Assembly (NCBI GenBank): GCA_031283895.1
Contig: JAITAV010000010.1
Coordinates: 43,823-107,822, forward strand
DNA length: 64,000 nucleotides
Direction of reading: 5' to 3'
From: Puniceicoccales bacterium
GTDB lineage: Bacteria > Verrucomicrobiota > Verrucomicrobiia > Opitutales > UBA9783
The notes under the pieces were generated by a model. The model saw nothing but the letters and a program-made list of their open reading frames with translations, was not told where the DNA came from and did not search any database. Of the stretch, positions 62,615 to 64,000 are shown piece by piece. The position numbers and the translations under genes are program-made. Every line of letters starts with the position of its first letter. Positions within the stretch are counted from its first letter, which is position 1.

Positions 62615-64000
62615 ATGGCCTCTCAAGAAACCGATCAAGTTGAAAATCAAAGGCAAAGTGATGCTGCAACGATGCCCGCCGGTCAACTTGTTTTGCGTGT
62701 ATTGTCAGGACCGCACATGGGGGCAGAAATCGATCTGCAGGAAATCGCCATCGTTATCGGCAAAGAAGCCGCGTGCGACGTGGTCCTCATCGATCCAGCA
62801 CTCAATGACCAACACGTCAAAGTATTTGTCAAAAACAGTCAAATTAACTTGGAAATACTCAATAACGCTCCCGTAACCGTGGAGGGTACCAACGTAACGG
62901 GGACCACCGTACTGCAAAATTTTCAAGCGATTGTCATCGGTTCAACTCTACTATCCATAGGCCCCAACAACGTTACTTGGCCCACCATCTCTGCCGATAA
63001 AAAACCGACGCAAGAAACCGTCACAATATCTCAAAATGAACCGACGCCCCAGCAAGATATACCTTCCGCTACACCACCGCCAACCGAAACCACAGCAGTT
63101 GATAATACCTCAAAAATTAAAAAGTATGCCATCGCAGGAAGCGTATCTTTGGCCGTATTGTTGATCGTCATCGTAACCCTATTTGCTTCAAAAAAATCCG
63201 ATGAACCCGATAAACTTGCAACTGCGGTATCCAAACATAGCAAAAATACAATTCTCAACATTTTGCAAAAAAACCACGTCAACAATAACAATATTACCCT
63301 AGAAGATAAGCAAAATGCATACGAATTGACCGTTTACGTTGAAACAAATGCTCAAAAACAAAATCTACAAAAAGCCTTATCCCATATACCTTTCAAAAAA
63401 TTGCGCATTTATTCGCAAGAAAATTTAATACTTCAAGCCCAGGAAGTTTTAAAAAAATTCAAGACCCTCTCTGTTTCAAAAACGGCCGAGCTCAATTCCA
63501 TCGCAATTCAAGGCTACCTGTATGCAATTGACAATTTACCGAATGTTAAAAATCAACTTTTCGCAGATATTGTCGGTCTAAAATCTATCCAAACGACCAT
63601 ATTAAGTTCAGATGAAGTTTACGATATGGCATCAAACTTGCTTACACAGTACGGGTTAATGGGACTTCTCAACATACAGGCCATCGAATCTGGACTTCTC
63701 GTATCCGGCAGCATTCCAACACAAAACGAACCTGTATGGAAAGATGCTCATAAAGCCCTTAAAAACACTTTTAACGGCATCTGTCACATCCTGACACATG
63801 TTGCTGTATTGCCGTCGCAATCCGTCAAACGTTCTTTCTTCAAATCACCCATCGCTTCCGTCTCCATTCCCACAGAGGGTGTTCCGTGGATTGATCTTCA
63901 AAACGGAGAACGCTACTTTGAAGGAACCACTTTACCTTCAAGCTACGTCATTCAATCCATCACGCCAAGTGGTATCATTCTTAACAAAAACGAAGAATCC
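62615..64000 (+). CDS. sctD: type III secretion inner-membrane ring protein SctD (YscD/EscD/PrgH family), 3' end beyond window
   Basis: Open-ended, so not in the track. My translation is MASQETDQVENQRQSDAATMPAGQLVLRVLSGPHMGAEIDL...(FHA-like)...KYAIAGSVSLAVLLIVIVTLFASKK (single TM)...periplasmic repeats...GTTLPSSYVIQSITPSGIILNKNEES. This has the same order as YscD, including the C-terminal G(Y)xIxxIxxxGxxL motif. An alternative start is ATG 62672 (MPAGQLVLRV). Confidence 0.75.
   Translation, partial: MASQETDQVENQRQSDAATMPAGQLVLRVLSGPHMGAEIDLQEIAIVIGKEAACDVVLIDPALNDQHVKVFVKNSQINLEILNNAPVTVEGTNVTGTTVLQNFQAIVIGSTLLSIGPNNVTWPTISADKKPTQETVTISQNEPTPQQDIPSATPPPTETTAVDNTSKIKKYAIAGSVSLAVLLIVIVTLFASKKSDEPDKLATAVSKHSKNTILNILQKNHVNNNNITLEDKQNAYELTVYVETNAQKQNLQKALSHIPFKKLRIYSQENLILQAQEVLKKFKTLSVSKTAELNSIAIQGYLYAIDNLPNVKNQLFADIVGLKSIQTTILSSDEVYDMASNLLTQYGLMGLLNIQAIESGLLVSGSIPTQNEPVWKDAHKALKNTFNGICHILTHVAVLPSQSVKRSFFKSPIASVSIPTEGVPWIDLQNGERYFEGTTLPSSYVIQSITPSGIILNKNEES

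Follow-up and report, generated by a model that had tools for sequence, protein, structure and literature searches.

An sctD gene very probably opens the structural operon of a type III secretion system in a termite-gut Puniceicoccales bacterium

Does the open reading frame (ORF) that runs off the right end of this DNA encode SctD, the inner-membrane ring subunit of the injectisome, and if it does, is a type III secretion system (T3SS) encoded beyond it? The window, i.e. the whole stretch of 64,000 nucleotides that was analyzed, is part of contig JAITAV010000010.1 from a Puniceicoccales bacterium (GCA_031283895.1), and its last gene spans 462 stop-free codons (62615-64000, +) and is still open at the right edge. 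We consider it very likely that this ORF is sctD and that it opens the main structural operon of an injectisome on the chromosome of a lower-termite-gut Puniceicoccales (Verrucomicrobiota) bacterium. An earlier note on this DNA, made from the letters and a list of their ORFs, had called the frame sctD and had pointed out that it was absent from that list; we found the frame is real, and the list leaves out ORFs that touch the end of the source.

A database search returned a public protein of 470 aa (P0001) that is 100% identical to the translation, and GenBank names this protein 'SctD [Puniceicoccales bacterium]' (MDR2769257.1, on a 166-kb contig of a metagenome-assembled genome, MAG). Hence, 8 codons and a stop codon (27 nt) of sctD lie beyond the window, and the gene would end at coordinate 64027. 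The NCBIfam SctD equivalog TIGR02500 matches at 123 bits (cutoff 86, E 1.4e-35) over profile positions 2-407 of 413. Two Pfam families also exceed their cutoffs with the window ORF: Yop-YscD_cpl (59 bits vs. 33) and YscD_ppl_2nd, which is the second BON-like domain of YscD/CdsD (31 bits vs. 27); YscD_ppl_1st (domain 1) falls just under its cutoff, and the C-terminus is Y4YQ_C-like.

The predicted structure has the same plan. In the AlphaFold2 model (21 homologues; mean predicted local distance difference test score 76.9, near 90 in the structured domains), an FHA beta-sandwich (residues 25-117) is followed by a disordered Pro/Thr linker (129-175), a transmembrane helix (177-190), three successive periplasmic alpha/beta ring-building (BON-like) modules (210-267, 268-330, and 332-399), and a small C-terminal beta domain (413-465). 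The translation agrees, with a Pro/Thr-rich linker (about residues 129-168), a single hydrophobic segment AIAGSVSLAVLLIVIVTLF (residues 168-195, the sole Kyte-Doolittle window above 1.6) in which the transmembrane helix spans about 170-193, and a C-terminus that reads ...YVIQSITPSGIILNKNEES. All of the peptides quoted in the earlier note (FHA-like stretch at residues 25-72, linker, transmembrane segment, and C-terminus) were found in it.

Searching the Protein Data Bank (PDB) by fold with Foldseek, we found the periplasmic domain of Yersinia YscD at rank 1 (4alz, E 8.5e-11) and chlamydial CdsD at rank 2 (4qo6), and the FHA domain by itself matches YscD (4a0e), PscD (6uid), and CT664/CdsD (3gqs, root-mean-square deviation 1.4 Å) with TMt values of 0.77-0.85. 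MxiG (8axn) and PrgH (7ah9), both from needle-complex structures, likewise match the model. The phosphothreonine-binding positions of the FHA domain are substituted, as the canonical Gly-Arg is G49-K50 and the canonical Ser is N64; H67 is invariant across the family alignment. YscD likewise is not known to have a canonical phosphothreonine-binding site. With 470 aa, a single FHA domain, and a profile of 413 positions, the protein belongs to the YscD-like size class, as had been proposed from the letters, unlike the double-FHA CdsD. Every testable defining feature of SctD is therefore present in this protein.

Since FHA domains also occur elsewhere, the ORF could encode a membrane protein from outside T3SS, such as a type VI secretion Fha/TagH protein, an EssC-associated protein, or an envelope regulator like FhaB/FipA. 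The FHA domain alone does match FhaB/FipA (39 bits), OdhI, and GarA with low scores, but these matches are limited to residues ~5-114 and lie far under the cutoffs (39 vs. 125), whereas the SctD equivalog passes its cutoff over the whole length, the periplasmic part matches the YscD and CdsD structures, and twelve sct genes follow in the same operon. We give this alternative practically no weight, and the profile search and the downstream operon likewise dispose of the Fha/TagH and EssC-associated proteins that the earlier note had named as what its reading might be confused with.

We read the DNA beyond the window in a Logan contig (L001, 9.5 kb) that agrees with the final 3905 bases of the window without a single mismatch. 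Hence, L001 is the true rightward extension of the window (window coordinate = L001 coordinate + 60095). The operon has 13 genes in the order sctD-E-F?-G-I-J-K-L-N-O-P-Q-R (Table 1), with sctE to sctO read in this exact extension, which ends at sctO/P, and sctP, sctQ, and sctR read in the corresponding locus of a 93%-identical sister MAG (L002). SctJ, SctN, SctQ, and SctR all score above their NCBIfam equivalog cutoffs. The earlier note had expected the injectisome locus to start at sctD and to continue past the window with further sct core genes. The continuation is borne out by 12 further genes, J, N, Q, and R among them; of the other expected genes (C, S, T, U, and V), none lies within 10 kb, and the start probably lies upstream of sctD. 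Absence of any other sct core gene downstream, which the note had set against its own proposal, is contradicted by L001 and L002, and hence the injectisome interpretation stands.

The same D-to-R operon is found in six further loci (L002-L007) and stops at sctR in every locus examined; SctD is 78% identical to that of the window in L005, 50% in L006, and 42% in L007. SctR of L002 has 264 aa, and the YscR and FliP profiles match it in two stretches. This implies an insertion of about 50 residues between its two halves, and the length of this insertion is kept in L005, L006, and L007 (258-264 aa). In L002, sctR is followed by a sugar-nucleotide acyltransferase gene, and the gap between them hides no sctS.

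Table 1. Positions of the sctD operon, its flank, and the export-gate-like gene trios of relatives (window coordinates unless a locus is named)
Feature	Location	Strand	Basis or remark
sctD, injectisome inner-membrane ring subunit	62615..64000	+	codons 1-462 of 470; profiles, identical protein, model
SctE-like, 71 aa	L001, after sctD		Pfam T3SS_needle_E, 24.6 bits vs. cutoff 22
Needle candidate (sctF position), 106 aa	L001		faint needle-family similarity only
SctG, tetratricopeptide repeat protein	L001		CdsG/HrpB1/YscG-like, weak match
SctI-like inner rod	L001		sub-threshold match
SctJ	L001		TIGR02544, 218 bits vs. 162
SctK	L001		Pfam YscK above cutoff
SctL	L001		TIGR02499, 99 bits vs. 79
SctN	L001		NF005391, 742 bits vs. 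657
SctO	L001		Pfam YscO above cutoff
SctP	L002		domain match
SctQ	L002		TIGR02551, 109 bits vs. 101
SctR	L002:19055-19849		TIGR01102, 249 bits vs. 209
Candidate sigma-70-type promoter of the sctD operon	62575..62603	+	TTTACA, 17-nt spacer, TATAGT; ends 11 nt before ATG
SctB/SseD-like translocon candidate, 293 aa	61341..62222	- (divergent from sctD)	weak sub-cutoff matches, conserved adjacency
Three small ORFs, 125/98, 103, and 189 aa	60017..61215	+	conserved beside the sctD operon
S-T-U trio	L008:8975-11092
S-T-U trio	L009:471-2650
S-T-U trio	L010:5938-8064
S-T-U trio	L015:2263-4436
S-T-U trio	L016:677-2820
S-T-U trio	L019:5658-7909

A flagellar export apparatus was considered as an alternative, and the FliI, FliP, and FliH models do give substantial secondary scores; foreign (plasmid) DNA that was misassembled or misbinned was considered as well. 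Yet the flagellar equivalogs all stay under cutoff where the Sct equivalogs pass, SctD, SctK, SctO, SctP, and the needle-like protein have no flagellar counterparts here, and there are no rod, hook, or motor genes. Against foreign DNA, the operon shares one contig and the same guanine-cytosine (GC) content with housekeeping genes, and four independent MAGs show the same arrangement, as does a Logan assembly that is likewise independent. The chance that either applies is negligible. Ribosomal-protein, rpoBC, rpoD, dnaG, sucCD, and rpoN genes are on the contig of sctD, with matching GC content. Hence, sctD is chromosomal and is no binning artefact.

The identical protein is assigned by NCBI to a Puniceicoccales MAG, and NCBI places this order in Opitutia (Verrucomicrobiota), within the Planctomycetes-Verrucomicrobia-Chlamydiae (PVC) group; the earlier suggestion of a non-chlamydial PVC bacterium was thus correct. 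Four sister loci (L002-L005) come from the species-representative MAGs JAITJL, JAISBA, JAIRKR, and JAIRMU with the isolate codes Pcl387, Gx481, Cc175, and Cd354. Termite-gut MAGs were deposited as JAIRJQ-JAITXW (PRJNA732531; PMC11257099), a range that includes the accessions of L002-L005, and the supplement of that study maps the codes to Procryptotermes leewardensis, Glyptotermes sp., Cryptotermes cavifrons, and C. dudleyi, all of which are Kalotermitidae (PMC11257099). The Kalotermitidae that host the sister MAGs are lower termites. The eukaryote-associated lifestyle proposed from the injectisome is consistent with these gut origins, which do not show a specific eukaryotic target. The same study describes 'putatively endosymbiotic Opitutales', which include Ca. 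Nucleococcus, an intranuclear symbiont of flagellates (PMC11257099).

We found the operon is intact and under purifying selection. Its genes have no internal stops, and the ratios of nonsynonymous to synonymous substitution rates (dN/dS) are 0.02-0.3 among three termite-MAG species (0.16-0.22 for SctD), with the tiny needle candidate as the sole exception in the closest pair, where there are very few substitutions. Relatives of SctN are also widespread: a search with SctN gave more than 120 clusters at >=70% identity, and the named ones among them are all Puniceicoccales, Opitutales/Opitutia, or other Verrucomicrobia MAGs in which the protein is already annotated as SctN. One relative lineage occurs in dozens of assemblies, with a member of its SctD cluster on 70 contigs and of its SctN cluster on 74. 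One contig of this widespread relative bears the sample label ZEEV15-1_SAMEA3664938, which we take to be that of a human-gut cohort. Between the window organism and this relative (P0008/P0022 vs. P0151, all from the lineage of one 342-kb contig), SctN is 92% identical but SctD only 50%. For an ATPase and a ring protein encoded in one operon, evolutionary rates that differ so steeply are unusual.

Several results weigh against an sctD-led injectisome operon in a termite-gut bacterium, or against parts of it. We found no sctS, sctT, sctU, sctV, or sctC within 10 kb downstream (L002, L005) or in the 64-kb window; Pfam scans of the large ORFs of the window for other T3SS parts gave housekeeping genes only. 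The labels of the needle candidate (106 aa) and of SctE, SctG, and SctI rest on weak matches, and no effector was identified for this injectisome. In addition, the sample run of the window, SRR14710909, had no match in the termite study, where the supplement gives SRX numbers, and it is from habitat that we infer a eukaryotic target.

These gaps raise the question of whether the operon is a remnant, non-functional or repurposed, which has lost its export gate (sctS/T/U/V) and its secretin. The end of the operon at sctR in every locus, with no S/T/U/V/C gene within reach, would fit such a loss, as would the orphan state of the SctN-like gene in GWF2_51_19, a groundwater verrucomicrobium, and the lack of any Puniceicoccales-named protein among the best 120 of 7293 matches to SctU. 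However, several species have the 13 genes all intact, at dN/dS of 0.02-0.3, the promoter block has been conserved, the closest reference system, that of Nitratidesulfovibrio vulgaris, also splits after sctR and has V-S-T-U elsewhere, relatives carry an S-T-U trio at another locus, and the SctU matches cover the best 120 of 7293, so absence from them is weak evidence. We therefore regard loss of function as unlikely and retain the reading of a maintained injectisome operon.

The trios are found in six loci of relatives that carry the same sctD-to-sctR operon lineage, none of them from the clade of the window, and each consists of stand-alone Bac_export_3/1/2 genes (FliQ/FliR/FlhB-like, i.e. 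S-T-U); neither fliP nor flhA nor any other flagellar gene is close by. In L008 and L009, the U protein scores 310-313 with the FlhB model vs. 270-275 with SctU, and the T protein scores 149-165 with FliR vs. 104-113 with SctT, all under both cutoffs. The best annotated plasmid matches of the U protein are FlhB, and its nearest outside relatives are verrucomicrobial FlhB proteins (45-48% identity; the one that was checked is in a full flagellar cluster), whereas its identity to N. vulgaris SctU is no more than 28-32%. When S-T-U was sought in the clade of the window, the closest U homologues that could be traced came from unrelated samples or MAGs (SRR14932604, SRR10277276, SRR094926, GCA_944389435.1, and GCA_964508215.1). 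The trio may belong to a hybrid export gate, represent a deep-branching S-T-U set, or be the remnant of a flagellar system. The boldest form of the first, an Opitutia hybrid gate in which a Ysc/Desulfovibrio-like SctD-SctR operon works with S, T, and U recruited from the lineage's own fliQ-fliR-flhB, is rather unlikely.

In L008, rpoN (1-1196) and the gene of an NtrC-type sigma-54 activator (11102-12532) flank the trio near sctD. A gene for an ATP/ADP translocase (TLC/NTT, PF03219; L015:7847-9367) lies about 3.4 kb from the trio of L015. Intracellular energy parasites typically have transporters of this kind, which fits the 'putatively endosymbiotic Opitutales' with NTTs (PMC11257099). The GWF2_51_19-like organism, in turn, has an ATPase that is 76% identical to SctN, an orphan between proS and unrelated genes (L017:10001-11323), and an FlhB in a normal flagellar cluster (L018:324-4933). 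It is odd to find an ATPase of the injectisome type away from any injectisome genes, and with an orphan SctN-like gene and a flagellar U protein, this organism was uninformative for dating the split layout.

Upstream of sctD, the T3SS locus probably begins near 60.0 kb, i.e. ~2.6 kb before the gene. The divergent 293-aa protein matches NCBIfam translocon_SseD (E 1e-5) and Pfam SctB2 (E 0.002), and its orthologue in L002 matches SseD (E 4.6e-6) and SctB (E 5.9e-5), with all matches of the 293-aa protein under the cutoffs; a PDB sequence search with it gave nothing meaningful. By tblastn, its gene adjoins sctD in L002-L006 and L008 (51-69% identity). We tentatively propose that it is a T3SS translocon subunit. 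The three small ORFs next to it match no Pfam or NCBIfam family; tblastn places them beside sctD in the loci of the termite MAGs (62-87% identity), and it places the 189-aa ORF near sctD in the distant L006 and L008 as well (27% identity). The orientation of this upstream block differs among the loci. Linkage is the one ground for their membership, and they may be T3SS accessory proteins, either chaperones or substrates.

The ~70 nt before the sctD start codon are near-invariant across four termite-MAG species, and the remaining spacer has diverged. This block holds TTTACA-17-TATAGT, with 10 of 12 consensus positions, which we infer to be the promoter of the sctD operon and which would imply a very short leader; promoter-like matches in the region upstream of sctD are no more numerous than in shuffled sequence. 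The sigma-54 gene rpoN lies 2.8 kb upstream of sctD (58406-59785, -). Control of the operon by sigma-54, suggested by this rpoN and by the sigma-54 activators next to S-T-U in L008 and in N. vulgaris, was considered and rejected, with no GG-N10-GC site in 62223-62614 and no conservation of the sites in orthologous regions.

If the system works as established for other injectisomes, 24 copies of SctD would surround the SctJ ring as the outer of the two inner-membrane rings, with their periplasmic modules in contact with the secretin and their cytoplasmic FHA domains docking the SctK-Q-L-N sorting platform. From this platform, substrates would pass the SctRSTUV gate and then the needle to reach a eukaryotic cell, which in the termite gut would most plausibly be a gut flagellate or the termite epithelium.

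A maintained Ysc-like injectisome is thereby placed in termite-gut Puniceicoccales, and contact-dependent delivery of effectors would offer a concrete molecular starting point for understanding how these bacteria get into gut protists or the termite host, or manipulate them. Our literature search found no paper that pairs Puniceicoccales with type III secretion. On the other hand, sctD is already correctly named in GenBank, T3SS have been known in Verrucomicrobiota since Verrucomicrobium spinosum, and SctN relatives are common in Opitutia and Verrucomicrobia MAGs. Hence, the finding adds to a known pattern without altering it, and its interest would rise only if the hybrid gate or a link to endosymbiosis in protists is demonstrated.

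Elsewhere in the window, two large ORFs have no Pfam match at E <1e-4 (31775-33643, +, 622 aa; and 38481-40802, -, 773 aa), and a 766-aa protein beside rpoN in L008 (1860-4160) has none either; these could be surface or secreted proteins particular to the lineage. At 46001-48000, GC content is down to 0.33, relative to a mean of ~0.41 for the window, in a segment that spans an ABC-transporter ATPase gene (46056-47057) and an adjoining ORF of 267 aa. This segment may be recently acquired or fast-evolving DNA.

To which T3SS family does the operon belong? SctN is 69.6% identical to SctN of N. (formerly Desulfovibrio) vulgaris, encoded on a megaplasmid (NZ_CP116248.1) and the highest among annotated references, 68% to YscN, 62% to AscN, 55-58% to Rhc/Hrc, 46% to Spa47, and 42% to InvC; SctR is 47-48% identical to AscR/YscR, 38-40% to Hrc/Rhc, and ~35% to FliP. 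The family was assigned from such identity rankings together with gene order, and both resemble the Ysc and N. vulgaris systems. Hence, the operon is placed with the Ysc type, and judged by its sequences, the system is Ysc/Desulfovibrio-like and not chlamydial.

N. vulgaris has the same order, sctD, E, F, TPR/G, J, K, L, N, O, P, Q, R, and its operon also stops at sctR. In N. vulgaris alone, sctC is directly upstream of sctD, translocon and chaperone genes are adjacent, and sctW...sctV-sctS-sctT-sctU form a separate adjacent unit in which sctU is directly followed by a sigma-54 regulator; around the window operon, none of sctC, V, W, S, T, and U is present. The structural proteins have diverged far more than the ATPase (SctJ 35%, SctR 47%, SctD 34% over the FHA domain only, SctQ 25%). 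SctD has 609 aa in N. vulgaris compared to 470 aa here, the ~50-aa insertion in SctR is a further difference, and the genes are on a plasmid there and on the chromosome here. In Yersinia, the Ysc genes (virB and virC operons of pYV) have the same D-E-F-G-(H)-I-J-K-L and then N-O-P-Q-R order, and YscD (4alz, 4a0e) provides the top fold matches, at 17% identity to SctD in structural alignment. Yersinia has yscR-S-T-U in the same operon and yscA-B-C before yscD; the window system has neither arrangement.

Chlamydial T3SS are from the same superphylum, which leaves the alternative of a chlamydia-type system inherited vertically within the PVC group. Their loci are dispersed, and here too the genes occupy more than one locus; the structures of the FHA and periplasmic domains of CdsD match well by fold, the best sequence match among solved structures is the FHA domain of Chlamydia trachomatis CT664/CdsD (3gqs, E 5e-7; the same 1.4-Å match as above), and SctG matches the CdsG model (E 1e-11). 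CdsD, however, has ~800 aa, among them an additional region at the N-terminus and another FHA domain, whereas SctD of the window has 470 aa and one FHA domain. Moreover, the ATPase and the stator match Ysc-type models: SctN scores 742 bits on NF005391 compared to 308 on PRK05922 (cutoff 604), and SctL scores 144 bits on NF005392 compared to 67 on PRK06328, the two PRK models being presumably of the chlamydial type. With SctN 68-70% identical to YscN and N. vulgaris SctN, and with Ysc/Desulfovibrio-like colinearity from D to R, we consider chlamydial descent very improbable. The PVC link is taxonomic and does not reflect a T3SS lineage in common with Chlamydiae.

The closest precedent for the Ysc/Desulfovibrio-like system described here is V. 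spinosum, likewise a non-chlamydial PVC bacterium of the Verrucomicrobiota with an injectisome, which one study links to interaction with eukaryotes (PMC3681970). It belongs to the class Verrucomicrobiia and is a free-living cultured organism, in contrast to a termite-gut MAG from Opitutia. Its T3SS genes were attributed to horizontal transfer from D. vulgaris-like donors (PMC3542564), and the window system shares this donor affinity. As proposed for V. spinosum, horizontal transfer is the probable origin of the T3SS in the window organism, with a Desulfovibrio-like or Ysc-like system as its source.

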